Positions 888-48,100 of a DNA stretch of 64,000 nucleotides are shown piece by piece. The stretch covers positions 1,826 through 65,825 of the IMG/VR virus record IMGVR_UViG_3300031994_000094. One strand, 5' to 3'. The notes beneath the pieces are model-generated. The model worked only from the letters and a program-made list of their open reading frames with translations. It had not been told where the DNA came from and did not search any database. The position numbers and the translations under genes are program-made. Within the stretch, counting starts at the first letter, position 1. Every line of letters begins with the position of its first letter. Source of the stretch: a virus (lineage: Duplodnaviria > Caudoviricetes).

Positions 888-972
888 AAAGGGCATAAAT
901 AGATGATGGATATAAGTGGCAATTTGGTTAACATAATGTCAGAAAATAAGTGTTCATCTATTTATGCCCTTT
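888..972. repeat. 19-bp perfect inverted repeat in the cassette leader
   Basis: AAAGGGCATAAATAGATGA (888-906) and TCATCTATTTATGCCCTTT (954-972), 47-nt interior, followed by a T-rich tract. Confidence 0.85.
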
Positions 973-996
973 TTCTTTTGTCAAAGGAGCAGAGAG

Positions 997-1374
997 ATGT
1001 ATGTATCTTACAACCCCAATCCAAAGGGAAACTATGTGGGCGATTGTGTAATCAGAGCGATTGCCAAAGTAACAAATCAAGATTGGGATAGCACTTATTT
1101 AGATGTGTGCATACAAGGTTTTATGTTGAAAGATATGCCGTCAGCAAATCATGTATGGGGAGCATATCTAAGAAGTAAAGGATTTATTCAGCAAACTGTA
1201 CCTAATACTTGTCCAGATTGTTATACAGTGAAAGATTTTACACATGATTATCCACAGGGTACATATCTACTCGCTACTGGAACCCATGTGATTGCAGTAC
1301 AAGATGGTAACTACTATGACAGTTGGGACAGTGGTGATGAGCCGATTGCATACTATTGGGAAAAGGAGAAATAA
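997..1374 (+). CDS. Conserved hypothetical protein, possible papain-like cysteine protease fold
   Basis: RBS AAGGAG before ATG 997; GDCVIRAIA ... THVIAVQDG.YYDSWD gives a candidate Cys/His/Asp triad. Confidence 0.6.
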   Translation: MYVSYNPNPKGNYVGDCVIRAIAKVTNQDWDSTYLDVCIQGFMLKDMPSANHVWGAYLRSKGFIQQTVPNTCPDCYTVKDFTHDYPQGTYLLATGTHVIAVQDGNYYDSWDSGDEPIAYYWEKEK

Positions 1375-1376
1375 CA

Positions 1377-1829
1377 ATGGCAATTTATAATTATGGTTTA
1401 CCAGTCAATTATCAGACACCTATGGCATATCAACCTCAATATCCTATGCAACAAACAATATCTAACACCCCGATAACCACCAATCAGAATAGTGCAGGAA
1501 TCATATGGGTACAAGGAGAAGCAGGAGCAAAAGCATACCCAGTAGCCCCCGGAAATAGTGTACTTCTTATGGATAGTGAAAGCGAGTGTTTCTATATCAA
1601 ATCTACAGACCATAGCGGTGTACCAATGCCATTACGGTCTTTCACATATACAGAGATTGTACAATCTCAACAACCCAATGAGGAACCAAAGGTTGATACT
1701 TCTCAATTCGTTACCCGTAGCGAATTTGAAGAACTTAAAAAGATGTTACAAGAAAGACAGCCTATGAGAAGGGAGAATCGAAATGAACAAACTCTTTCAA
1801 GAAACTCAAAGCAACAGCGTGATGAATAG
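1377..1829 (+). CDS. Hypothetical protein, Q/Y/P-rich N-terminus plus WVQGEAGAKAY domain (accessory cassette)
   Basis: RBS AAGGAG; composition and motif. Confidence 0.75.
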   Translation: MAIYNYGLPVNYQTPMAYQPQYPMQQTISNTPITTNQNSAGIIWVQGEAGAKAYPVAPGNSVLLMDSESECFYIKSTDHSGVPMPLRSFTYTEIVQSQQPNEEPKVDTSQFVTRSEFEELKKMLQERQPMRRENRNEQTLSRNSKQQRDE

Positions 1830-1983
1830 GATCCAACAAATAATGCAGAAATACAATGTACCACAGGAAATAAGAAATGACCCACAGCAGATAATCAACT
1901 ACCTTGTTCAGAGTGGAAAGGTAGACCAAAATACTATAAATCGTGCTATGCAACAAGCACAGAAAATGGGATTCAAATTTTAG
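1783..1983 (+). CDS. Small Gln/Asn-rich hypothetical protein (accessory cassette)
   Basis: RBS GGGAG; NDPQQIINYLVQSGKV motif; overlaps upstream gene. Confidence 0.7.
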   Translation: MNKLFQETQSNSVMNRIQQIMQKYNVPQEIRNDPQQIINYLVQSGKVDQNTINRAMQQAQKMGFKF

Positions 1984-2030
1984 GTAATACTTGCAAGTTT
2001 ACATAATATTCTACAAAGGAGGATAATGTT

Positions 2031-2870
2031 ATGTCATTATCAAACGGAACTGAAAACATGGTAATGCCTGTAGCACCGATGTATGGTGGCGGTTACGGTG
2101 GTGGATTCAGCAACGGTTTCGGTGGAGACGGTTGGTGGATTCTGTTACTGCTTCTGTTTGCTGGCGGTGGCTGGGGTAACGGTTATGGTGGTTTCGGCGG
2201 CGGTAATGCAGAGTTTCCTTGGCTGTTTAATGGACAGTCTGGAATTAACGCAAATACAAACGCTGGATTCCAGAACGCTATGCTCAATGATAACGTCACT
2301 TCTATTAGAGATGGTATTGCTTCATTGAGTACACAGTTATGTAATTGCTGTGGCGATATGCAGATGGCACTCTCTAATGGTTTTGCAAATGCTGAACAGG
2401 GTGCTAATGCTCGTCAGATGGCAGATATGCAACAGATGTTTGGTATTCAGTCAGCACTTCAGAATTGTTGCTGTGAGAATAGGGCTGGTATTGCAGACCT
2501 TAAATACACAGTTGCAACGGAAAATTGCGCTGATAGAACACAGTCTATGCAGAACACACGGGATATCATCGAGAATCAGACACGTAGTACACAGGCTGTT
2601 CTTGATAAGCTGTGTCAGCTTGAACTGGATGGCTTCAAACGTGAGAATGATAATCTCCGTTCTCAGCTTAACATGGCTACACTTCGTGAATCTCAGACAG
2701 CACAGAACGCATTTATCTCACAGGGATTTGCTAATGAGGTTGACCAGTTGTATAACAGGCTGAATAACTGTCCTGTACCCACTACACCCGTTTATGGTCG
2801 TACCCCCATCTTTACTTGCAACAATAACGGTTGCGGATGCGGATGCGGTGGCTATAACGGCTCTTTCTAA
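2031..2870 (+). CDS. Gly-rich/hydrophobic N-terminus, Cys clusters, long coiled coil; spore-coat/exosporium-like composition
   Basis: RBS AGGAGG; GGDGWWILLLLLFAGGGWG, CNCC, NCCCENR, C-terminal CNNNGCGCGC. Confidence 0.75.
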   Translation: MSLSNGTENMVMPVAPMYGGGYGGGFSNGFGGDGWWILLLLLFAGGGWGNGYGGFGGGNAEFPWLFNGQSGINANTNAGFQNAMLNDNVTSIRDGIASLSTQLCNCCGDMQMALSNGFANAEQGANARQMADMQQMFGIQSALQNCCCENRAGIADLKYTVATENCADRTQSMQNTRDIIENQTRSTQAVLDKLCQLELDGFKRENDNLRSQLNMATLRESQTAQNAFISQGFANEVDQLYNRLNNCPVPTTPVYGRTPIFTCNNNGCGCGCGGYNGSF

Positions 2871-2885
2871 TCGGAGGTAAGAACT

Positions 2886-2921
2886 ATGGCTGAATTTATG
2901 AGGAAAGGAGAAGCGTTTTAA
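2886..2921 (+). pseudogene. Orphaned start (MAEF stub) of the gene interrupted by the downstream endonuclease
   Basis: GGAGGT RBS + ATG GCT GAA TTT then stop after 11 codons; mirrors MSEY at 3632. Confidence 0.6.
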
Positions 2922-2925
2922 TTTG

Positions 2926-2954
2926 TTTACATTTACTTCAAAGTATGGTAGAAT
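2926..2954 (+). promoter_or_regulatory. sigmaA promoter of the inserted endonuclease
   Basis: TTTACA-17-TAGAAT with extended TG. Confidence 0.7.
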
Positions 2955-2994
2955 AAGATAAAAGAATATTCAAACTGTACGAAAGGAGAAATGT

Positions 2995-3654
2995 ATGAGC
3001 AAATTTATTGATATTACGGGTAAAAGATATAACAACCTTGTAGTGGTCAAACGAATGAAGAACGCACCAAATGGTGTTACTGTTTGGAAGTGCGTCTGTG
3101 ATTGTGGAAATACCACGATTGTAAGAGGATCAAATCTTAAAAATGGTAGTGTAAAAAGTTGTGGATGTAGAAAACATAACTCCATCAACGCAACCCATAA
3201 AATGTCCAAAACAAGAATCTATCGAGAGTGGGCAAGTATGAAATCCAGATGTTATTGTGAGAACACAAAAACTTATAAGGATTATGGTGGAAGAGGTATC
3301 GAAGTTTGCAACGAATGGAAAAATTCATTTGAGAATTTTAGAGATTGGGCGTATTCAAATGGCTATTCAGATGAGTTGACAATAGAGAGAAAAGACTACA
3401 ATGAGAACTATTGTCCAGATAACTGTATTTGGATACCATTTAATGAACAACAACGAAATCGAAGAAATTGTCTTTTATTTACACATAATGGAAAAGAGCA
3501 AAATCTAACCGAATGGTGTAATGAATTAAATCTATCATATAAGAATGTTCACAATCGCATTTACAGACTTGGTTGGTCTTTTGAAAGGGCCATTTCAGAA
3601 CCCGTATGTATCAAAAAACGTAATAAAGATTATGTCCGAGTACACGAGAAATGA
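2995..3654 (+). CDS. Free-standing phage homing endonuclease (HNH-like)
   Basis: DITGKRYNNLVV...WKCVCDCG...SCGC, YKDYGGRGIEVCNEW, LTIERKDYNENYCPDNCIW, NLTEWCNELN. Confidence 0.85.
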   Translation: MSKFIDITGKRYNNLVVVKRMKNAPNGVTVWKCVCDCGNTTIVRGSNLKNGSVKSCGCRKHNSINATHKMSKTRIYREWASMKSRCYCENTKTYKDYGGRGIEVCNEWKNSFENFRDWAYSNGYSDELTIERKDYNENYCPDNCIWIPFNEQQRNRRNCLLFTHNGKEQNLTEWCNELNLSYKNVHNRIYRLGWSFERAISEPVCIKKRNKDYVRVHEK

Positions 3655-4102
3655 TATTCAAGTGGTACAACCAAACCAGCCTGTACTGTTAGACACCACT
3701 ATCGGTTGTCCTAATGGTTATGTTCTTCATCGTGAGGGTAGCGGAATTATCACTTTACGTGGTATTACAAATTGCTGTTTTGCCCGGTATCAAGTCACAT
3801 TTAATGGGAATATTGCTATACCCGATGGTGGTACAGTAGGACCTATCTCTATTGCAATCGCAATAGATGGGGAGCCTGTACTCACCAGTAAAGCAATCGT
3901 AACTCCTGCGGCAACCGCACCAGTACCGCCTACAGAAGATAATTTCTTCAACGTGACAAGTACCGCAATTATTACAGTGCCGAAAGGTTGTTGCTTTAAC
4001 ATTAGCGTAGAGAATACATCTTCTTCTACCACTCCGGCAACAACTCCTGCACCCCCTATCAATGTTCAAAACGCTAACCTCGTTGTTAGTAGAATCGCCT
4101 AA
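3632..4102 (+). CDS. Beta-rich hypothetical protein, BclA-CTD/C1q-like jelly roll suspected (accessory cassette)
   Basis: MSEYTRNDIQVVQPNQPV...HREGSGIITLRG...QNANLVVSRIA; beta-strand pattern; likely true start 3632 rather than 3545. Confidence 0.65.
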   Translation: MSEYTRNDIQVVQPNQPVLLDTTIGCPNGYVLHREGSGIITLRGITNCCFARYQVTFNGNIAIPDGGTVGPISIAIAIDGEPVLTSKAIVTPAATAPVPPTEDNFFNVTSTAIITVPKGCCFNISVENTSSSTTPATTPAPPINVQNANLVVSRIA

Positions 4103-4119
4103 GAAAGGAGAGTAATACT

Positions 4120-4716
4120 ATGTCTAAGAGAATGTATGAAGATTTGAAAGAAATCCTCTGTCATGAACTCAACGAGATTACTCGCAAGGGCGATATTGAC
4201 AGAGAGGGACTTGATGATGTTTACAAACTTTCATCCGCAATTACGATGGTAGAAAGTCTGATGAAGAAACAACAGGGTCAAGGTCAGCAAGGAGAGAGCG
4301 AGTATTCTAATCGCTACTCCAATGACTATTCAAATGAGGGTATGTCCAATGCTTATAGAAGAAGTATGCGTGGCTCTTATGATGGTATGTCTAATAACAT
4401 GGGTACTTCCAATGACTATTCTAATCGTGATGGCTATGCAAACCGTGGTGAACAGTATAGCAGAGATTATAGTATGGATAGTTCATATGAAGGCTCATAT
4501 GACTATAGCGGAAGAAGAGGACGTGACGCACAGACAGGCAGATATGTAAGTCGTGACGGTGGTTCCTATGATAGCTATGATAGCTATGACCGTGGCTATA
4601 GCAGACATACGGCAGAACAGAAAGTAGCACGTAAGCTGGAAGATATGCTTGACACCACACAAGACCAACATATCAGAAATGCTATTATGAAAGCTATGAA
4701 TATGCTCAAACAGTAA
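4120..4716 (+). CDS. Hypothetical protein with Y/S/D/R low-complexity repeats (accessory cassette)
   Basis: RBS AAGGAGAG; YSNDYSN, SYDSYDSYD repeats; GRRGRDAQTGRYVSRD. Confidence 0.75.
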   Translation: MSKRMYEDLKEILCHELNEITRKGDIDREGLDDVYKLSSAITMVESLMKKQQGQGQQGESEYSNRYSNDYSNEGMSNAYRRSMRGSYDGMSNNMGTSNDYSNRDGYANRGEQYSRDYSMDSSYEGSYDYSGRRGRDAQTGRYVSRDGGSYDSYDSYDRGYSRHTAEQKVARKLEDMLDTTQDQHIRNAIMKAMNMLKQ

Positions 4717-4724
4717 TATACTGG

Positions 4725-4752
4725 GAGGGGTGTGAAATATCACCCCTCTTTT
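4725..4752 (+). terminator. Rho-independent terminator
   Basis: GAGGGGTG/CACCCCTC stem plus TTTT. Confidence 0.65.
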
Positions 4753-4763
4753 AGGAGGATAAT

Positions 4764-5141
4764 ATGGTTGACATAACTACTATTGAAGATACATTAGAGG
4801 AACTTGTAAATGACGCACCTACGACCTTTGAAACGTGCGAAAAGATAGCACACCTTACAATTACCCGTGATTTGCTGAAAAGTCGCTTAAATCGAACGAG
4901 AGAGGGGTCAGAACGTGTCTTAAATGAGTTGCATGACATACTACCATCATATAATAAATATGTAGACACAAAAAAGCGGTATCAGCAGTATGAAGTTGTG
5001 GAGCAAATGGTAGTGATAGCTATGCAAAATCTATGTGATGAGATTGCAGATTTCATCATTACTCTATATCGTAACACAGAAAGCGCAGAAGAAAGAGAAG
5101 CAATAGAGACTATGATAGATGAGATAAGAAGTGCAATTTAG
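4764..5141 (+). CDS. Helical hypothetical protein (end of accessory cassette)
   Basis: RBS AGGAGG; 125 aa ORF. Confidence 0.7.
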   Translation: MVDITTIEDTLEELVNDAPTTFETCEKIAHLTITRDLLKSRLNRTREGSERVLNELHDILPSYNKYVDTKKRYQQYEVVEQMVVIAMQNLCDEIADFIITLYRNTESAEEREAIETMIDEIRSAI

Positions 5142-37850: not shown

Positions 37851-38180
37851 ATGGCAAGTAGAAAAGGTATGATAAATACTTTTCAGTTAGCGTTTAACCA
37901 GGCTGGTTATCCGATACTTTATCATACTACACAATTTTACTCCATGCGTCAGCATCGCCCTGTAACACAGTATCATCTCAAATGGGTTGTTGTGGATCGT
38001 GAAACCAATCGTAGTCAGGGAGTGGAGATATTCAACACTTACTATCAGATGTGGATAATATTCTTCTTACGGGATCTGTGGGATTGTATAAATAATAGAC
38101 CTATTGATACTTCTAACCCTTATTGGGAGGCATATAAGAAGAAACACAATATCGTGATAGAGGATGTGATGTTAAAATGA
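37851..38180 (+). CDS. Hypothetical protein
   Basis: 109-aa ORF coupled to its neighbours. Confidence 0.65.
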   Translation: MASRKGMINTFQLAFNQAGYPILYHTTQFYSMRQHRPVTQYHLKWVVVDRETNRSQGVEIFNTYYQMWIIFFLRDLWDCINNRPIDTSNPYWEAYKKKHNIVIEDVMLK

Positions 38181-38767
38181 TGCCATATATAGACCCTATT
38201 TTAACAGATGAAGATATAAAAGCTGATGTAAATGCTGTAAAGCAGTACACATTAGAGGATCGACCAAAACCAAAAGCCACCCCAATTACACAGACAGAAA
38301 CCTATAAAAATAGATATGTGACACATAATAAGCATAAATTAACAATGCGAGAATACAGATTCATAGATGCTTATATGGCAAGTGGTGATGGTAAAGAAGC
38401 AGTTATTAAAGCTGGGTATAAGGTTAAAGGTGTATCGGCTAAAGCCAATCAGTTACTAAAGACAGATTATATAGCTGATGAAATAGCATATAGAACAGAA
38501 ATATTAAGAAGTGCCCAGGTTGCGGATAGACACGAAATTCTGTCATTCTTAACAGCCGTAATGCGTGGTGAAGTAAAAGACCAGTTCGGATTAGATGCAC
38601 AATTAAAAGACCGTATAGATGCCGGAGAGAAACTTGCTAAACGATTGATAGACGATCCAGTAAAGATGAAGCAGAATGTAGCTGCACAGCAAGTAGTAGT
38701 TAATATAGACTTCAACAGGGATGAAGAAGTAAATCCTGTTGTAGATGTTCAGCAATTATCTGACTAA
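38177..38767 (+). CDS. terS: Terminase small subunit
   Basis: LTMREYRFIDAY...AVIKAGY...ILSFLTAVMRGE...RIDAGEKLAKR. Confidence 0.85.
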   Translation: MMPYIDPILTDEDIKADVNAVKQYTLEDRPKPKATPITQTETYKNRYVTHNKHKLTMREYRFIDAYMASGDGKEAVIKAGYKVKGVSAKANQLLKTDYIADEIAYRTEILRSAQVADRHEILSFLTAVMRGEVKDQFGLDAQLKDRIDAGEKLAKRLIDDPVKMKQNVAAQQVVVNIDFNRDEEVNPVVDVQQLSD

Positions 38768-38797
38768 GCCTCAGATTTTTCCATAATTGTTTCTCCT

Positions 38798-38836
38798 AAA
38801 AGGGAGGTGTATGCGTAAAAAACATACACCTCTTTT
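38798..38836 (+). terminator. Rho-independent terminator
   Basis: GAGGTGTATG/CATACACCTC stem plus TTTT. Confidence 0.75.
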
Positions 38837-38846
38837 AATTTTATTG

Positions 38847-38885
38847 TTGACAATCTATAATCATTGTAGTATAATGTTTAATGTA
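38847..38885 (+). promoter_or_regulatory. sigmaA promoter with operator (copy 5)
   Basis: TTGACA-17-TATAAT-GTTTAATGTA. Confidence 0.85.
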
Positions 38886-38916
38886 AATAGAAACACATAC
38901 CATAGAGGAGGTATCT

Positions 38917-39420
38917 ATGAAAGATATGGAGATGAGGACGAAGATGGATTACCCTAAAATGAGAAAGGAGTTTATTAAGACGAGAGGATTTAAGAACCTC
39001 TCAGTATTCGCAAGGGCGGTAGATGAATACCCTACTAATATCCATAAGATAGTGAAGGGTATTCAGTTACCAAAGATTGAACGATTACTTCAATGGGCAA
39101 TCGTTCTGGATTGTGATATAGAGCAGTTAATCACATTATTTTATCCAAATGAAATGCAGAAGTATGTAGAAGCCAAAAACCGAAAGTATGCAGAAACTAA
39201 AAACCAAAACATTACAGGGGTAAAGATTATGTATAGAGTATGGGAGAAATCAGAGGAAACTGATAATAAGTGGAGAAAGACATGGTTTACCACAAATTAT
39301 AAAAGTGAAGCCCAGGATTATGTTCACGATATGTATATGGCAAATGAGGCAGATAGAATGGTTGGTTGTTATGATCCAACATTACAGTATAAGATAAAGG
39401 AGGAGGTAGCAGTATGTTAG
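38917..39420 (+). CDS. XRE-family HTH protein with C-terminal extension
   Basis: LSVFARAVDEYPTNIHKIVKGIQLPKIERLLQWAIVLDCDIEQL. Confidence 0.7.
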   Translation: MKDMEMRTKMDYPKMRKEFIKTRGFKNLSVFARAVDEYPTNIHKIVKGIQLPKIERLLQWAIVLDCDIEQLITLFYPNEMQKYVEAKNRKYAETKNQNITGVKIMYRVWEKSEETDNKWRKTWFTTNYKSEAQDYVHDMYMANEADRMVGCYDPTLQYKIKEEVAVC

Positions 39421-40358
39421 TAAAGTCAAATATTTCATGGAATGCAAAGCAGATTGGTAAGATGATTGAAAAGGGTACAATCTCTTTTGATAATGCCGTA
39501 CAGAGAGGTCTTGTGTGGGATGTGAAGAGGAAGTCTTTACTTATTCACTCCATTCTTATGGGTTATCCCATTCCTCCGTTCTATGCTACAAAGAGGGATG
39601 GTGTATATGATATGCTGGATGGTAAGCAGAGGTCAAATGCCATTGTAGATTTTATCAATGACAAGTATGCCTTAAAAGATATTCCAGAAGTTCAGAATCC
39701 TGATGATGCAGACGTTGATGAAGATATTAACGATATGAAGTTTTCTGAGCTGGCGGAGGAATATCAAGACTTGATCCTGTCATACACATTTACTATCTAC
39801 TACTATGATGGTATTACAGATGAGCAGATAAATGAAATGTTTTATCGGCTGAATAATGGTAAGCCTTTGTCAGCCATTGAACTGAGTAGAGCGAGAGCAA
39901 AGAGTCTTGATGTTATCCGTAAGCTGGCTAATCATCAGTTATTTACCAGTACCCTTACAGAGAGTGCTTTAGCGAAGTATGCCGCAGATGATTTGGTAGT
40001 AAAGGCCTATGTAATCCTCTTTACAGATACATATGACTTATCTTCAAAGAATGTACGGAGTATCATTGAAAACACAGAGATTACAGAAGAACAGGCAGAT
40101 TCCATATCAGATACTCTGGATAAATACTTCAATCTGTATAATGAAGTTTTAGTAAGGTCAAAGAGTGCGGCGAAGAAACTGGTTCAGAAAGTACATATGT
40201 TGTCTATTCTCCCTGTTATAGAGGATATGGATGCAGATACAGCTATTGAGTTCTTCAATGATATGCCGGAAGAATATAAGGCAAGTTGTTCTAATGGTAC
40301 AAATTCAAGTGCAAATGTAAAGAAAAGAGTAGACATATTAAAAGAGTATGTCAGATAG
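39414..40358 (+). CDS. DUF262 (ParB/Srx-like fold) protein
   Basis: QRGLVW, SILMGYPIP, DGKQR, FYRLNNG. Confidence 0.85.
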   Translation: MLVKSNISWNAKQIGKMIEKGTISFDNAVQRGLVWDVKRKSLLIHSILMGYPIPPFYATKRDGVYDMLDGKQRSNAIVDFINDKYALKDIPEVQNPDDADVDEDINDMKFSELAEEYQDLILSYTFTIYYYDGITDEQINEMFYRLNNGKPLSAIELSRARAKSLDVIRKLANHQLFTSTLTESALAKYAADDLVVKAYVILFTDTYDLSSKNVRSIIENTEITEEQADSISDTLDKYFNLYNEVLVRSKSAAKKLVQKVHMLSILPVIEDMDADTAIEFFNDMPEEYKASCSNGTNSSANVKKRVDILKEYVR

Positions 40359-40363
40359 AAAAG

Positions 40364-40395
40364 GATCCCCAGTATAAAAGCTGGGGATTTTTTTA
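40364..40395 (+). terminator. Rho-independent terminator
   Basis: ATCCCCAG/CTGGGGAT stem plus T-run. Confidence 0.8.
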
Positions 40396-40421
40396 TGTCT
40401 GAATAAATCTCTGTGACTCGT

Positions 40422-40594
40422 GAAAGCATTAAAGTTCGTTGCATATATTTTTATGGAGAAAATCTTTTCTCATAAAGGAGCAGTTAGCACTACTCCAGAT
40501 GAGTGCTAATACCTACTCACCTACTGGATTATAGGATTTTTTGGTGGATCGTAATAATTCTTTAGGGGTCTCGAAAGCATTAAAGTTCGTTGCA
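40422..40594. repeat. 22-bp direct repeat GAAAGCATTAAAGTTCGTTGCA x2
   Basis: Exact copies at 40422-40443 and 40573-40594. Confidence 0.85.
40484..40509. promoter_or_regulatory. CIRCE-like inverted repeat 1
   Basis: TTAGCACTA-N8-GAGTGCTAA. Confidence 0.55.
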
Positions 40595-40636
40595 GAATCC
40601 AGGGTGGATTTTTCTTCATTCAGCATAATACAGTTG

Positions 40637-40662
40637 TTAGCACTCCCTGGGGTGAGTGCTAA
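40637..40662. promoter_or_regulatory. CIRCE-like inverted repeat 2
   Basis: TTAGCACTC-N8-GAGTGCTAA (canonical spacer is N9). Confidence 0.6.
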
Positions 40663-40681
40663 CATTATGTACAATCAAATG

Positions 40682-40900
40682 CAGCCGTGGCCCCTGGAGG
40701 GGCCCCTGTGGGCATGATCCAGTATCTTCGTGCTGATGGTCCAGCCGTGGCCCCTGGAGGGGCCCCTGTGAACGTGATACAGTATCCTCTTGCTGATGAT
40801 CCAGCCGTGGCCCCTGGAGGGGCCCCTGTGGGCATGATCCAGTATCTTCGTGCTGATGGTCTGTTGTGGCCCCTGTGGGGCCCCTGTGGGCATGATCCAG
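40682..40900. repeat. GC-rich 60-bp tandem array, about 3.7 copies
   Basis: CAGCCGTGGCCCCTGGAGGGGCCCCTGTG... repeating at 40682, 40742, 40802 plus a degenerate fourth copy. Confidence 0.92.
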
Positions 40901-41037
40901 AGGCTTGGCTTTTGTTGCATTATATGGAAGGAAAAAAATATAAAAAAGTGATTGACAACAATATAAAAAGTGTGGTATTTTATTATTGCAAGCAATACTT
41001 GCAAACAATAAAAAAATCATTTTAGGAGGAAAACGCA

Positions 41038-41685
41038 ATGATGAAAAACATTAAAAGAGCTATTAAGGCTCATGAGGTTGAAAGCAACCGCAAATTTGCG
41101 GCGGATCTGGAAGGCAAAACGGCGAGTCAGTTGCTGGAGTCCTGGTATTATCGCGACAATATGACTCCGAAGGTGTTTGAGGCAGTTAAGGCACTTGACC
41201 CCAATGCAACGCCGGAAGGCTGGATCATTGAAAAGATGGAGAAAAAGCACGCAAGGAAAGAAGCGAAGGCAGCGGCGAATCGCCTGGAAAAAGTGGAAAG
41301 AGTAGAAAATACTGATCTACCGAAAAACATTATTGTTTCTGTGGAGTGGCATAAGTCTCGGATTTGGGGATATAATCCAATGGTTACAGTTTCAGCGGAC
41401 CACAGACGGACTACAGGAACGGCCTCCGGTTGCGGTTATGACAAGGAATCGGCCGCCATAGCAAGTGCATTTAACGCACACCCCGAAATTATGCGAATCA
41501 TATATGAATATGCAGAGAGTGGCCAGACGTTCCCGTATGGCGTTCATACGTGGGCCGGGGTTCCGTCTTTTGATGGCGGTTGTGGTGTATCTGTATTTTA
41601 TGCAATATTTGAGGCTTGTGGCTATGAGTTTAAGCAAATAGCAAGCGGCAAATTGTACAACGTATACGCAATAAATAGGAAGTAA
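41038..41685 (+). CDS. Conserved hypothetical phage protein
   Basis: AGGAGG RBS; TASGCGYDKESAA motif. Confidence 0.75.
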   Translation: MMKNIKRAIKAHEVESNRKFAADLEGKTASQLLESWYYRDNMTPKVFEAVKALDPNATPEGWIIEKMEKKHARKEAKAAANRLEKVERVENTDLPKNIIVSVEWHKSRIWGYNPMVTVSADHRRTTGTASGCGYDKESAAIASAFNAHPEIMRIIYEYAESGQTFPYGVHTWAGVPSFDGGCGVSVFYAIFEACGYEFKQIASGKLYNVYAINRK

Positions 41686-41782
41686 GAAAAGGGCCGCAAG
41701 TGTTGACCCCGTGTGGATATCCGGCGCCGCGAGGCTGGAGTGCTACACACGGGATCGACAAAAGGCCGGAAGGGAGGAAAGA

Positions 41783-42588
41783 ATGCTAATTTATGCACGT
41801 TTTAAGGATGGACGGGAGGCTCTATATTCTGGAGCCGTTCTTCCACTTATGTTAAGCGATCCGGACGTATCCGAAATAATGGACGCTGAAACAGGCGAGA
41901 TATATAAGGCAAGTTATCCAAATTTAAAGGGAGGGCATGAGAATGAATAATTATGTATTCCGTGATAATAACGGCCAGGACTGGAAACGGGTTACGAAAA
42001 AGGCCGCTAAAAAGGCATATATAGCTGGAAATATTGTTGTTTTAGTACCTTGCAACCTTCGACCCTTCGGTCCGTGGGGTATCGGCTGTAGTATCAACCG
42101 CAAAGATAGAGCCGCTTTTGTAACTGATGAAATAGGCGTGAAAAATGACTTTGATAATTTGGTAAATAGTCATGAGTTTTATAACTGTATAAATTCAGAA
42201 ACGGGTCGTTATAGTGCTTTTTATATTCAGATGGATTAAAGGCGTTTTAAGGCGTTTTTAAGTCCGGAAGGGGTAAATATCCCTTGGATAGATAAAAACG
42301 CCTCAAAACGTACGAGAGAGGCCTCAAAAGGGCCGGAAAATACAATATTCAGTGGATCCAGTTTGGCGGTTGGACCATTTCAAAATATGGATTCTTTCCA
42401 AGGGAGGAAGGCCGTGTATGATGAAAAGAAAATATAAGTCGCCGGAGTTTTGGAGATATTATATAGACGGGAAGGAAGTATCAAAAGCCGAGGCACTGGA
42501 TCAAAGAAAAAAGAATAGTAAGTATTTATCAAGTAGGAATGTTGCATTATGGGATAAAGTAAAAATCATACGGATGGAACGGAGGTAG
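41783..42588 (+). other. Three small hypothetical genes (41783-41950, 41937-42239, about 42418-42588)
   Basis: GGAGG RBSs and ORFs. Confidence 0.6.
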
Positions 42589-42866
42589 AAAAAAATGTAT
42601 ATTCTAACATATAAAGCAAAGCGGAAAAATGCTAGACGCCATATATGGGGAAGGTATAATAGCATAGATGAGTGTATAGTAAACGCAAATAATAGTAATT
42701 ATATATTCACTGTATATAATAACAAGTGGGAATATGTCCAGGAGGTAAAGAAAAAAATAACTACTGTATAGGGGATATAATAAAATAAGAAGGGAGCCGC
42801 TGGAAGGGAAAAACACCCGGAAGGCGGCCCCTTTTTTGGTCCCCTTGCTACCTTCTATATATGTCA

Positions 42867-42882
42867 TGTTTCATGTGAAACA
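42867..42882. promoter_or_regulatory. parS site (one mismatch)
   Basis: TGTTTCATGTGAAACA. Confidence 0.8.
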
Positions 42883-42910
42883 CAAGTGAATTAAGGGGTC
42901 ATGGGCTTAA

Positions 42911-42926
42911 TGTTTCACGTGAAACA
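42911..42926. promoter_or_regulatory. parS site (perfect chromosomal consensus)
   Basis: TGTTTCACGTGAAACA, a 16-bp palindrome. Confidence 0.9.
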
Positions 42927-43365
42927 CGATCCGCCGCTGGATCGTGACCCCACTGGATCCAGGGGCCCACCCGGCAAAAAACCGCCACAGGGGATCGAGG
43001 CGGGCATGGGGTGGTGTGTCCCAAAAAATATTGAACATTTGTCTAAGTAGTTGTCACGTCAATTTTGTAACCATATAACTTCAATAGTTGTCACGCCTAT
43101 TATACTGAGTATTTATACAAATAGTTATCTTGAAAAAGAGGTTTATAAGAGGTTTATGCTTCTATTTTTCTTCTAATCCTCCGAAGATTTTGGTTTTTTG
43201 TGCATATTGCACAACAGGGTGTTTATTTCCTATATAGTAAAATAAACACTTCTTCGTGATTTTGCACAAAAGATTTTCTATTAGTTGTCCCCGGATTTTG
43301 ATTTTTATGGTTAATTCTTGCATTATGTAAACTAATTTGTTATAGTAAAGTGTAAGAGGTGGAAG

Positions 43366-44670
43366 ATGAATATAGATATTAAGCTACAAAACTTAATAAT
43401 TCCTTCTTATGATGGGGTGTTTAAGGATATAATGCAACATAACCATGTGCATTATACTTTGAAAGGAGGAAGAGGCTCTACCAAATCTTCTTTTATTGGG
43501 GGCATTGTTATTCCTCTTCTTCTTATGCGATATCCTAATGTTAATGCGGTATGTTTTCGTAAGGTAGGGAATACTGTTCAGAACTCTATTTATAGCCAGG
43601 TTACTTGGGGTATATATCAGATGGGGCTTGAATCGCTCTTTCATATCCCGAAAACATATTCTAACCCGATTATTTATAAACCTACCGGGCAGAAGATATT
43701 CTTCATGGGCATGGATGACCCGAATAAGGTTAAATCTATTAAGGTAGAGCGTGGGTATATAGGCATTACATGGTGGGAAGAACTTGACCAGTTTGCTGGC
43801 GACAATGAGTTACGTAAGGTATTACAGTCTACCATGCGTGGCGGTGATTTGTTTTGGGACTTTCGTACTTTTAACCCGCCGATTTCGATTGATAACTGGG
43901 CTAATGAGTATGCAGAAGAAGCAGAGGATAAGGATAATACCCTTGTAGTTTCTAATACCTACTTAGACGTACCCGAAGCATGGCTGGGTCAGCAGTTTAT
44001 TGAAGAAGCTGAGGACTTAAAACGTGTTAATGAACGTGCATATTTACATGAGTATATGGGCTTACCTATCGGCACTGGTGGCTCGGTATTTCCTAACGCT
44101 TGTGACCTTGATATGAATGAGCAAGTACCTGTCTATGACTTTGATGGGCACGTACTTGAATATACACCGATGTGGAAAACCTTTGATAGGATTTATAATG
44201 GCATTGACTGGGGCTTTGCTATGGATCCATTTCGCTATATCCGTATGCACTATGACCAAAAGAAACTTGACCTTTATATCTTCACTGAATATTCAACCGT
44301 AGCGACACGAAATCAAGTGGTTTTTGATATTCTCTATAAAGAAAAGAAACTCTTGAAGATGGATGAATTAGTTACTGCTGATAGCGCAGAGCCTAAATCT
44401 ATCGCAGACTTTAGGGCTTATGGGGCGTATATCAGAGGGGCGATAAAAGGTCCTGATTCTGTGAGATATGGCATTAAATGGCTGCAAGGACTTAATCATA
44501 TCTATATAGACAAGCGGAGATGCCCACTGACTTATAAAGAGTTTACTCATTATGAGTATTGCCAGGATAGAGATGGCAATTTTATCAGTGACTATCCAGA
44601 CGAAGATAATCACAGTATCGACGCTTGCCGTTATGGTCTTGAACGCTTCTATAACCGCAGAGGTAACTAA
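43366..44670 (+). CDS. terL: Terminase large subunit, PBSX family
   Basis: KGGRGSTKS, WWEELDQ, TFNPP, GIDWG, ADSAEPKSI, NHSIDACRY. Confidence 0.95.
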   Translation: MNIDIKLQNLIIPSYDGVFKDIMQHNHVHYTLKGGRGSTKSSFIGGIVIPLLLMRYPNVNAVCFRKVGNTVQNSIYSQVTWGIYQMGLESLFHIPKTYSNPIIYKPTGQKIFFMGMDDPNKVKSIKVERGYIGITWWEELDQFAGDNELRKVLQSTMRGGDLFWDFRTFNPPISIDNWANEYAEEAEDKDNTLVVSNTYLDVPEAWLGQQFIEEAEDLKRVNERAYLHEYMGLPIGTGGSVFPNACDLDMNEQVPVYDFDGHVLEYTPMWKTFDRIYNGIDWGFAMDPFRYIRMHYDQKKLDLYIFTEYSTVATRNQVVFDILYKEKKLLKMDELVTADSAEPKSIADFRAYGAYIRGAIKGPDSVRYGIKWLQGLNHIYIDKRRCPLTYKEFTHYEYCQDRDGNFISDYPDEDNHSIDACRYGLERFYNRRGN

Positions 44671-44672
44671 GA

Positions 44673-44701
44673 TTGACACAGATAGATACATACTGTATAA
44701 T
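44673..44701 (+). promoter_or_regulatory. Consensus sigmaA promoter of the inserted HNH gene
   Basis: TTGACA-17-TATAAT, 2 nt after the terL stop. Confidence 0.85.
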
Positions 44702-44731
44702 GACTCCAAAATATCTTTTGGAGGTAATTAT

Positions 44732-45349
44732 ATGACATACCAAACATTTGATGGAATACAATTTGTGTTAGACGAAAAAACAGGTTATTTTAAGCACTCA
44801 ACACTACGAAAGTATATGCACCGATATGTGTGGGAATACTATAATGGCAAAATACCGAGTGGTTATGAAGTACATCACATTGACTTTGATAGGTCAAATA
44901 ATGATATTTCAAATTTACAGCTTCTTTCTCGTAAAGAACACAAAAAACTACACGCAGACTTATTAACCGAACAACAACGAGAATGGCGTAGACAGAATTT
45001 AGCCAAAATGGCAAGACCGAAAGCGTCAGAGTGGCATAAATCAAAAGATGGTAGAGATTGGCATAGCGTTCATGTTAAACAACAGCATGAAAGCGGTCAA
45101 TTTAAGCGAGAATTGATATGTACTCAATGTGGTAAAGAATATGTTGGTGAGTTATACAAAGTTGGGGGCAATTCATTTTGTTCAAATAAATGTAAATCCG
45201 CATATCGTAGACTACATGGACTGAATAATATTACAAAAGTCTGTCCTATATGTGGTAAAGAATTTGCAACAGATAAGTATGCTCCAACTATGACATGTTC
45301 AAGAAGTTGTGCGAATAGATTGAAGTGGAATAATAGGAGAGGTAATTAA
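44732..45349 (+). CDS. HNH homing endonuclease with zinc-finger repeats
   Basis: GGAGGT RBS, ATG 44732; MHRYVW...EVHHIDFDRSNNDISNLQLL; CTQC, FCSNKC, CPIC, TCSRSC. Confidence 0.9.
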   Translation: MTYQTFDGIQFVLDEKTGYFKHSTLRKYMHRYVWEYYNGKIPSGYEVHHIDFDRSNNDISNLQLLSRKEHKKLHADLLTEQQREWRRQNLAKMARPKASEWHKSKDGRDWHSVHVKQQHESGQFKRELICTQCGKEYVGELYKVGGNSFCSNKCKSAYRRLHGLNNITKVCPICGKEFATDKYAPTMTCSRSCANRLKWNNRRGN

Positions 45350-45637
45350 ATGGCGAGATACACTTATGGGGCTGGACCTAAACCACGCAGAAGGACTGAA
45401 AAGGTAAATCAAAATACAGATAATGTGTATGGTGGTAATAATGGAGCAAACAGAGGTAAGTCATACACAAAGAAAAACAACCCTACGGATCGAGGAAATC
45501 GTATAGATAATCTACAAGGTGAAAAGAAAGAACGTAGAGGTAGACGATCCACAGGAACTACGAAATTTAAGTCTAAAACTACTGGACAGAAAGCAAGAAG
45601 TAGAAACGCTAATAAGCGAAACAAAGCAAAGGGGTGA
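45350..45637 (+). CDS. Highly basic low-complexity protein
   Basis: K/R/N/G/T-rich, 95 aa. Confidence 0.75.
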   Translation: MARYTYGAGPKPRRRTEKVNQNTDNVYGGNNGANRGKSYTKKNNPTDRGNRIDNLQGEKKERRGRRSTGTTKFKSKTTGQKARSRNANKRNKAKG

Positions 45638-45642
45638 TGTAA

Positions 45643-46290
45643 ATGCCACAATTATTAAATACCTCTTTGCGTGAATATGAAGGTGTGGGCGAATATAATA
45701 TTCCCGCTATTCAGCCTATATATGAATTACCACAAATAGATAATTGGCTGGAATTTGAGAAAGCAAAGAAATTGCGTAATAAACCCTCAAAAACAGGAGT
45801 ACATTTCTTTGAGTATGACTTCAAATTTGAGTGTTGCTGGAACTTTCCAGACCGCTATGCAGAAGTGCTTTCAGCTTATGATGCTATTGTTACTCCCGAT
45901 TTCTCTTACTATATAGATTTTCCAAAAGCATTACGTATCTATAATAAATATCGTATGCACTGGATAACAGCATATTGGCAAGAGAGGGGACTTAATATGA
46001 TACCCCTCATACGCATTGGTCTTGAAGAAGATTGGGATTGGTGCTTTGACGGTTATCCTATTGGTAGCATTGTAGCAGTATCAACGGTTGGTTTAGGAAA
46101 GAAATCTGAACTACACGACTTGGGTAAGCGGTGCTATGATGAAATGCTCAAACGTCTACAGCCCAAAGAAATTTTAGTATATACACGAAATTTTGATTAT
46201 TTTCCTGGCAACGTGCGATATATCAAGTACAGTATTGATAAACATATTAAGGGCATAGACGATATTGATAAGGAGGACAATGATGGTTAG
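45643..46290 (+). CDS. DUF4417-like protein
   Basis: GVHFFEYD..F...PDFS.Y...YWQ..G..IP...WCFDGYP.GS.VAVS. Confidence 0.8.
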   Translation: MPQLLNTSLREYEGVGEYNIPAIQPIYELPQIDNWLEFEKAKKLRNKPSKTGVHFFEYDFKFECCWNFPDRYAEVLSAYDAIVTPDFSYYIDFPKALRIYNKYRMHWITAYWQERGLNMIPLIRIGLEEDWDWCFDGYPIGSIVAVSTVGLGKKSELHDLGKRCYDEMLKRLQPKEILVYTRNFDYFPGNVRYIKYSIDKHIKGIDDIDKEDNDG

Positions 46291-48100
46291 TTTCTCTCAA
46301 ATCATTCAAAAGTTAAAGGAGGTTTTCTCTAAAATGGTCAAAGGTAAATCTATTGAACGTGAGATAGGTGTTTCTCCGCTTATTTCAAATCAAATGGCAA
46401 ATGCTATTCAGCTATGGGAAGATATGTATAAGGGTCAATCTCCATGGATACATGAACCTACTTTTAACGACCCTACACGGGTTGTCAGCCTTGGATTACC
46501 TCAGATGATAGCAAGTGAGAAAGCAAGAACAGCTTTACTTGAATTTAAGTCTGAGATTACAACTCCCATGAAAGAGGTTGAGGTTGAATCCGAAGCTAAT
46601 AATGCGATTGAGCGTTTTAACGAATCTCTTGATTTTGAGAAAAACTCGCAAAATAACGAAGCAAATCAGCCGCAAGGCGGTGTTCGCACCCCGATGTTTC
46701 ACCCTAAGAACACAGTTAAAGAACTTGTACCAAAAGGACCTACTGAACGTGCTGAGTACCTAAATAAGATTTATCAGCGTAAGATACTGCCTAAATTGCG
46801 TAGAGAAATTGAGTACGGTATTGCTTTAGGCGGGTTGGTAATTAAACCTTATGTTATTGTTAATGAGCCTATAGAAACCATGCAGGATGATGATAATGTA
46901 CTCACACTTAATACAAAGATAGATAAAGCTGAGATGGAGTTTGATTTTGTCTATGCTGACCATTTTTATCCTCTTGCTTTCAATGGTAGTGGTGATATCA
47001 CAGAAGCCGCTTTTATCGAACATAAAGTGGATAAGAATATCACATATAGCAGACTTGAGCATCATAAGTATATTAGTAGCACACATCAAGTTGTTGTTAC
47101 TAATAAGGCTTTCAAATCTACTGCAAATGTACAGGCGAATGAAGGTGCAGACCTCGGTCAGGAAATTTCTTTGAAGCAAGTACCCGATTGGGAAGGTATT
47201 CAACCAATGGTTGTTATCAATAATGCTGATAGACTTATGTTTGCATACTTCAAAATGCCTGAAGCCAATACGATTGATATGTATAGTCCTCTTGGTGTGA
47301 GTGGTTTTGATAAAGCAATTAAACTGATTAAAGATGCAGATTATCAGTATAGCAGACTTCTGTGGGAATATGAAGCCGGGGAAATGGCTATTGATATTGA
47401 CCGTGATGCTCTGAAAGATACAGAAGTAAGAGATAATAACGGAAATCTTATCATGGTTAGTAAGATGGGGCATATGCAACAAAGATTGTATCGTCCTGTT
47501 GTGCTTGATAATGGTAACGGTAGTGATACATACCAACCTTATGCTCCCACTCTTCGTGATGCAAGTTTTATCAATGGTCTAAATACAATACTCACACATA
47601 TTGAAGATGTAACTGGTCTTTCCCGTGGTACTCTTTCAGAGGTTACTATGAGTGAAGCCCGCACTGCTACAGAGTTACGTATCCTTAAACAGCGGAGTTA
47701 TCAGACAAATGCTGATATACAGAAAGCTATTCAGCGGTGCTTAGAGGACCTTGTATATGTTATGAACGCTCTTTGTTCTCTCTATGATATTACAAGCGAA
47801 GGAGAATATGAAACTTCATTTGAGTGGGATGATAGTATTCTCGTTGATGTGGATACAGAACTTGGTAAGCGTATGACGCTTATGCAGAATGGTATTATGA
47901 GCAAGGAAGAGTTGCGTATGTGGTACATGGGTGAGACTGAGAGACAGGCTAAAGAAGCACTTCTCAAAGTACAGGAAGAGAATAGACTTGCTGTTGAAGA
48001 TAACCTTATGACACAGATGGAATTTAGAGATAACGGCATGGATAGTAGTATGCAACAAAAGCCGGATTCTTTTAGACAACCTACTGAGGGTAATGAATAA
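46283..48100 (+). CDS. Portal protein (A118/SPP1-like)
   Basis: Position; FAYFKMP..N.ID..SPLGVS; SEARTATE; FEWDDS. Confidence 0.88.
   Translation: MVSFSQIIQKLKEVFSKMVKGKSIEREIGVSPLISNQMANAIQLWEDMYKGQSPWIHEPTFNDPTRVVSLGLPQMIASEKARTALLEFKSEITTPMKEVEVESEANNAIERFNESLDFEKNSQNNEANQPQGGVRTPMFHPKNTVKELVPKGPTERAEYLNKIYQRKILPKLRREIEYGIALGGLVIKPYVIVNEPIETMQDDDNVLTLNTKIDKAEMEFDFVYADHFYPLAFNGSGDITEAAFIEHKVDKNITYSRLEHHKYISSTHQVVVTNKAFKSTANVQANEGADLGQEISLKQVPDWEGIQPMVVINNADRLMFAYFKMPEANTIDMYSPLGVSGFDKAIKLIKDADYQYSRLLWEYEAGEMAIDIDRDALKDTEVRDNNGNLIMVSKMGHMQQRLYRPVVLDNGNGSDTYQPYAPTLRDASFINGLNTILTHIEDVTGLSRGTLSEVTMSEARTATELRILKQRSYQTNADIQKAIQRCLEDLVYVMNALCSLYDITSEGEYETSFEWDDSILVDVDTELGKRMTLMQNGIMSKEELRMWYMGETERQAKEALLKVQEENRLAVEDNLMTQMEFRDNGMDSSMQQKPDSFRQPTEGNE

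Follow-up and report, generated by a model that had tools for sequence, protein, structure and literature searches.

Host-type parS sites upstream of the large terminase gene in a lineage of ParB-less phages: probable loading sites for host ParB

The window analyzed here is a 64-kb stretch of DNA corresponding to bases 1826-65825 of a 65,825-bp IMG/VR virus record that is 96% complete according to CheckV; by synteny with a complete relative (G004), the absent 4% was judged to be the tail-fiber region. All genes of the record share one strand, and their order starts with an Amidase_2/choline-binding endolysin, followed by a block of family-less genes at 1-5 kb. The endolysin type points to a Bacillota host; a search with this protein returned no genome match, and the Atlas gave Bacillota only. 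A replication set consisting of an SNF2 helicase, a DnaC-like loader, DnaB, primase, Pol A, a beta clamp, clamp-loader subunits and RecA is accompanied by two DNA methylases. The small terminase gene, terS (38177-38767, + strand; Pfam Terminase_2), is separated from the large terminase gene, terL (43366-44670, + strand; Terminase_3 plus an RNaseH-like C domain), by a 4.6-kb variable block that ends with a pair of parS sites. On the 3' side of terL are genes for an HNH homing nuclease, a DUF4417 protein, and portal, capsid and tail proteins, and the phage has a tape-measure tail protein. The HNH_3 homing-type nuclease gene (44552-45349) overlaps the end of terL and, because it is present in only three relatives (L006, L010, and L013), resembles a mobile insertion more than a part of the packaging machinery. 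Among TerL proteins of cultured phages, the nearest, at 45-46% identity, are those of Blautia phage Montmirail (46%) and of Clostridium perfringens phages. The record most likely represents a lytic-looking phage of ~66 kb that infects rumen or gut Clostridia.

The parS pair sits in a gap of ~595 bp upstream of terL (42772-43365), in which no convincing ORF and no Rfam match were found. The first site, parS-1 (42867-42882, no strand assigned), reads TGTTTCATGTGAAACA and is a C8T variant with one mismatch to the consensus, while the second, parS-2 (42911-42926, no strand assigned), reads TGTTTCACGTGAAACA and is a perfect copy of the 16-bp chromosomal consensus palindrome; the two are spaced 44 bp apart, start to start. 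With a chromosomal-type parS defined as a 16-bp palindrome fitting tGTTNCACGTGAAACa, the window thus holds one perfect and one single-mismatch site. No further match with up to two mismatches was detected on either strand of the whole 64-kb window, so the pair stands alone. Dinucleotide-preserving shuffles gave a chance expectation of 0.02 matches, and none of 100 shuffles reached two. Judged by their sequence, the palindromes are genuine chromosomal-type parS sites, in agreement with the initial annotation, which had described one perfect and one single-mismatch parS 44 bp apart in a non-coding block. Directly 3' of parS-2 is a GC-rich, GATC-dense patch (42927-43020, no strand assigned) with ~65% GC, as compared with 37% for the genome, and four GATC motifs; its predicted fold was no better than that of shuffled sequences. 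Since both parS sites are palindromes, there is hairpin potential between them. An RNA element at the pair was considered and rejected, as there was no Rfam match and the T5C changes described below are uncompensated, which argues against a structural role.

When the whole 65,825-bp record was searched with HMMs in six frames, none of the domains ParB_N, HTH_ParB, AAA_31 (ParA type), Phage_integrase and Resolvase was found, and the same tool recovered GmrSD_N, known from Pfam, as a positive control. Pfam scans of nearly all ORFs of at least 100 aa likewise showed no partition or integration domain. The earlier remark that the phage has no recognizable ParA/ParB pair or integrase therefore holds for the full record. 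In addition, ParB_N was not found in any of 41 other parS-bearing viral records tested, including three 100%-complete relatives. The variable block of the window does encode a stand-alone DUF262/GmrSD_N protein (ParB/Srx fold; 314 aa, 39414-40358) that lacks the usual nuclease half.

In all relatives, terL is preceded by elements in a common order, i.e., an intrinsic terminator, a box array with a period of ~37 bp and a promoter. The terminator-like hairpin of the window, with its T run (42787-42838, + strand; -27.2 kcal/mol, z = -2.6), ends the upstream gene block, so that the parS pair in the gap is probably little transcribed; an equivalent terminator occupies the same place in relatives. 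The array region (43022-43292) contains three boxes on the + strand (43048-43132; TAGTTGTCACG, TAGTTGTCACG and TAGTTATCTTG) with a 37-bp period, two of them starting at 43048 and 43085 and a degenerate copy at 43122, together with a fourth box, TAGTTGTCCCC, at 43282-43292. Every relative has such an array upstream of terL, with three to eight copies in the form of TAGTTGTCAC/TAGTTGTCC or CTTGTATTGTC (e.g., L003, 2799-3220; L141, 1-330; L011, 1676-1870). The box type follows the TerL sub-lineage, CTTGTATTGTC belonging to the other sub-lineage, and AAAAAATACTGAG often alternates with the boxes, also in relatives of the CTTGTATTGTC type. The arrays could be pac/TerS sites, late-activator sites or an origin.

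A putative late promoter for terL was read from consensus at 43318-43346 (+ strand), with a -35 of TTGCAT, a 17-bp spacer carrying TGn and a -10 of TATAGT. A promoter scan found TTGCTA-17-TATATT (TG) upstream of terL in the relative L015, and alignment by eye placed the window's promoter at the same relative position. The distance between parS and promoter varies within the lineage. In the window, the pair directly follows the terminator and is 391 bp from the -35, whereas in six relatives a parS lies 2 to ~30 bp from it: the last site ends 2 nt before the -35 in L015 and, as read by eye, 2-8 nt before it in L006, L007, L009, and L010 and ~30 nt before it in L008. Several relatives possess a second parS cluster 1.2-1.6 kb upstream, and the ORFs between their distal and proximal clusters (133-197 aa) had no Pfam or PHROG match.

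The conservation of the sites was assessed in 13 related loci retrieved with a TerL query (72-95% identity). Counting the window, nine genomes had 2.2 kb or more of sequence before terL, and all nine carried two to four parS-like sites there, for a total of 27, none of them more than 2.2 kb from the gene. The loci in which no site was seen offer just 0-1.9 kb of upstream sequence, two of them 1.5-1.9 kb. When four near-complete relatives were scanned end to end (62-67 kb), the sites proved to be confined to the 1.6 kb upstream of terL, in the non-coding hub that separates the last early/middle genes from the terL promoter. Conservation at this locus, which had been suggested as a check, was thus borne out. 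For the proteins encoded upstream of terL, no similarity could be detected when the window was compared with its relatives, whereas terL itself and the DUF4417, portal and capsid genes are homologous, indicating that parS has been retained while its surroundings turned over. The space between terS and terL is a hypervariable block of small ORFs, 4.6 kb long in the window (38768-43365) and 7.4 kb long in G004 (38932-46367), which is otherwise syntenic with the window genome-wide and has its terS homolog 7.4 kb upstream of terL. Among 11 incomplete TerL-related contigs (10 viral contigs and L141), six break off either inside terL or in the 2 kb before it, as compared with ~1.5 by a hand estimate for random breaks.

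This pattern bears on the idea that the pair is a passenger, that is, a piece of a host origin region residing in a variable accessory block without function for the phage. The position of parS at the edge of a hypervariable, GC-richer block would fit such an origin, but the sites are kept in nine genomes with differing flanks, in multiple copies and at this locus only, and a comparison of 40400-43040 with 201 Lachnospiraceae genomes gave no donor-like match, the best matches being 24-60 bp. We consider passenger DNA very improbable.

Across the 27 sites, GTT at positions 2-4, A7, G9-T10, and AAC at positions 13-15 were invariant. The commonest change was T5C, giving TGTTCCACGTGAAACA, at a position that the published consensus leaves free; the other variants were C8T, outer-base changes and single changes at positions 6 and 11. 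Variants tended to be uniform within a genome, with T8 in all sites of L009 (where the variant seen in parS-1 occurs three times), G1/C16 in L008, and C5 in L007 and L014. This uniformity could have arisen through local duplication alone or because the sites co-evolved with a binder encoded by the phage.

A candidate host emerged from a relative (G003) whose 66,480-bp sequence is the same as that of a scaffold in the rumen metagenome-assembled genome (MAG) "uncultured Lachnospiraceae bacterium RUG145" (G043). Apart from the phage scaffold, this MAG has exactly two parS sites, TGTTTCACGTGAAACA and TGTTCCACGTGAAACA, located 108 bp apart in an AT-rich spacer directly upstream of parA (AAA_31, 255 bits) and parB (ParB_N plus HTH_ParB); parS-2 of the window is identical to a site in this spacer. 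Perfect parS sites were present in 51 of 61 sampled Lachnospiraceae genomes, mostly two or three per genome, and many of the clusters listed were tight, with a spacing of 37-50 bp (44 and 44 bp in G095), a layout within which the 44-bp spacing of the phage pair falls. The T8 variant was not evident among the Lachnospiraceae chromosome sites listed. A study of gut bacteria employed the same consensus and reported that parS is clustered in Blautia and Enterocloster, for which it also described Hi-C hairpins (PMC10197239). A host group with a different parS sequence would have told against the initial annotation; instead, the RUG145 MAG and 51 of the 61 Lachnospiraceae genomes share the 16-mer, with the host assigned by binning. 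As MAG binning is weak host evidence, the match is a lead rather than a proof.

An IMG/VR scan for the perfect 16-mer returned at least 119 contigs, at least 33 of which had two or more sites. The counts that follow apply to the matches listed, with TerL detected by three queries, and are indicative because only part of the matches was sampled. Another TerL superclade is represented by at least 22 parS-bearing loci. Seven of its members (L050, L053, L073, L107, L040, L025, and L133), whose TerL proteins share 65-90% mutual identity, have a single perfect parS that either precedes the start of terL by ~40-180 bp or coincides with it. In L119, the terL reading frame carries a perfect parS at its 5' end, 73 bp ahead of the part that aligns, and in L075 and L036 five sites extend across ~1 kb upstream of terL. 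Counted by lineage, parS upstream of terminase genes amounts to an indicative figure of ~4 independent cases, and our literature search found no paper describing host-type parS beside terL. Several other parS-bearing records among the matches listed are small genomes that encode a polymerase, capsid or tail-knob protein of the phi29 type and represent the case already known, and some of them have inverted terminal repeats; the uncultured phi29-like genomes with such repeats carry two to six perfect or near-perfect sites. No parS was found in four loci of bacterial genomes that represent integrated or temperate relatives of the window's TerL, or in the 41 kb examined of the integrase-bearing temperate Blautia phage Montmirail.

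Two further features of these contigs were recorded. Among 59 whole contigs (L016-L134, of the matches listed), 10 had a perfect parS within 150 bp of a contig end, where 2.3 were expected; these ends could be real genome ends or assembly breaks, and at least one case (L114) is a phi29-like genome with inverted terminal repeats. Three contigs of 12-14 kb from sample 3300045988 (L021, L035, and L120) form a small-phage family with four to six parS sites each, including an adjacent pair 34 bp apart; a 693-aa ORF of L021 had no Pfam match.

Alternatively, a protein of the phage itself might happen to recognize the parS sequence and use the sites as operators or packaging signals, with host ParB being irrelevant. 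Compatible with this reading are the immediate proximity of parS to the -35 of terL in relatives and the homogeneity of variants per genome, and two phage proteins could be named as binders, namely the DUF262/GmrSD_N protein, the only member of the ParB superfamily encoded in the window, and the conserved DUF4417 "nuclease" adjoining terL. Both candidates were rejected: GmrSD_N is missing from five relatives that carry parS, and DUF4417 from 22 other parS-bearing phage records in a search run without a positive control. Furthermore, no ParB HTH was found in the record, the identical 16-mer occurs in phage lineages with no upstream genes in common, and the sites remain centered on the host consensus with no drift. 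The presence of the same 16-mer in unrelated ParB-less phages points to a host factor common to them and away from a phage-specific binder, and its recurrence without shared neighbors, the lack of a ParB-type reader in complete genomes and the match to host clusters together argue against a private phage binder, which we consider improbable.

The initial annotation had further proposed that the phage might be trapped in spores, as a "spore-coat-like" cassette at 1-5 kb seemed to fit. In phi29, according to the account in PMC2731898, parS is combined with Spo0A boxes, which are needed alongside it. Spore entrapment of this kind, in which Spo0J-bound parS carries the genome into the forespore and Spo0A represses lytic genes, has the phi29 precedent in its favor, as well as 4.5 kb of sequence from a related phage (TerL 86%) that was binned with a second Clostridia MAG (G044) that has Spo0A, SpoIVA and SASP; this fragment is all of the phage that the MAG holds. 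However, the Spo0A box TGTCGAA occurred 0 times on both strands of the 64-kb window against 5.7 expected from shuffles, an absence that may reflect avoidance or a TCGA-related bias, and the MAG that contains the whole-genome relative (G043, of unstated completeness) yielded no Spo0A_C, SpoIVA or SASP.

The supposed spore-coat ORFs did not help the proposal either, since none had a Pfam or NCBIfam match and the homologs of the one searched ORF (3545-4102; at least 8000, ~156 aa) were unnamed. The ORFs at 964-5141 are 48-85% identical in G004, except for the ORF at 2995-3654, which has no homolog there. Among them are a family-less Gly- and Cys-rich protein with a membrane-like segment (2031-2870; 85% identical in G004) and a family-less, conserved low-complexity protein rich in Tyr, Ser, Asp and Gly (4120-4716). 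With no Spo0A boxes, a marker-less G043 and "spore-coat" ORFs of no known family, the spore proposal is weakened, and spore entrapment becomes a minor possibility that we deem unlikely for this phage.

Taken as a whole, the data favor a different reading, namely that the parS sites probably act in cis as loading sites for host ParB (Spo0J) on phage DNA. Binding of the phage sites by host ParB itself appears likely, and the earlier suggestion that the phage borrows the host partition machinery gains support, as regards ParB, from the conservation of the sites and their identity with the parS clusters of the candidate host family. Once the phage has entered, clamps of ParB-CTP from the host would nucleate at parS and spread over the hub upstream of terL. 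The unintegrated phage genome would then behave like an origin-proximal piece of chromosome coupled to host ParA, ParB and SMC, and could be kept and distributed whenever lysis is delayed, either in a carrier state or, in spore-forming hosts, in spores. Because a clamp loaded at parS would be at the terL promoter and the putative pac array or could reach them by sliding, bound ParB would probably also damp late transcription or packaging until replication multiplies the sites.

If host ParB does bind, several consequences can be envisaged. Retention or partition of the phage genome, to which we would give close to an even chance, is plausible by analogy with phi29 and fits the absence of an integrase; it leaves unexplained why parS stays at the terL hub in several lineages, although no other untranscribed gap is as long as this hub. 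If ParB gated late genes or packaging, the placement would be explained; this is a tentative second possibility. Draining of ParB and SMC from the host chromosome seems unlikely, and some other role still more so. Host chromosomes have two or three sites, which replicating phage DNA would soon outnumber, so that a titration timer or depletion of host ParB/SMC is quantitatively plausible. A specific form of such a timer, in which ParB clamps block late transcription or packaging at low copy number and replication then drains the ParB pool and frees the late operon, strikes us as rather doubtful; if it is true, the device would be a general one, as unrelated ParB-less phages of at least three to four lineages have this layout.

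The use of a host centromere protein through cis sites alone has so far been worked out for one small family of Bacillus phages, with spores as the setting. An apparently abundant lineage of large phages of rumen and gut Clostridia conserves the same sites, and its candidate host is seemingly non-sporulating. This suggests a role beyond spore entry, which might be to retain unintegrated genomes while gut bacteria divide, to time the late genes, or to interfere with the organization of the host chromosome. In the lineage of the window parS is always beside the packaging gene, and this placement, together with its recurrence in other phage lineages, suggests that ParB hijacking is a widespread phage strategy. 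The pair is also a short piece of DNA that lends itself to experimental tests and through which carrier states of "lytic" gut phages could be studied.

Among known systems, the virulent Bacillus phages phi29 and Nf use host-type parS through host Spo0J (Meijer et al., 2005, as summarized in PMC2731898), the summary giving five sites for phi29. Like the window phage, they are of lytic type, have no ParB/ParA of their own and carry several sites of the host consensus, with host ParB as the presumed binder. The window phage differs in that it is a 66-kb phage with a tape-measure tail and its own replisome, whereas phi29 is a 19-kb protein-primed podovirus; its sites are clustered at one hub upstream of terL; it lacks the Spo0A boxes that the phi29 type has at phage promoters; and its candidate host is a member of the Lachnospiraceae seemingly unable to sporulate. 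The plasmid prophages P1 (parABS) and N15 (sopAB) also have a centromere-like site on an unintegrated phage genome. They encode their own ParA and ParB with private centromeres, whereas the window record, with no ParB_N, HTH_ParB or AAA_31, has no parA-parB operon. In KorB-OB of plasmid RK2, and in the effects of ParB-parS on nearby promoters, a loading site for a ParB-type clamp lies at or near a promoter. The six relatives with parS close to the -35 resemble this arrangement, although the clamp in the phage would be the host's rather than the element's own and the sites of the window are ~390 bp from the promoter. In sequence and layout, the phage sites resemble the chromosomal parS clusters upstream of parAB in Lachnospiraceae, which share with the phage the 16-mer, its T5/C5 variants and the AT-rich, non-coding setting and often the tight tandem layout as well (two or three sites, 37-50 bp apart). 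On the chromosome these clusters lead into parAB, whereas in the phage their neighbors are the packaging genes.
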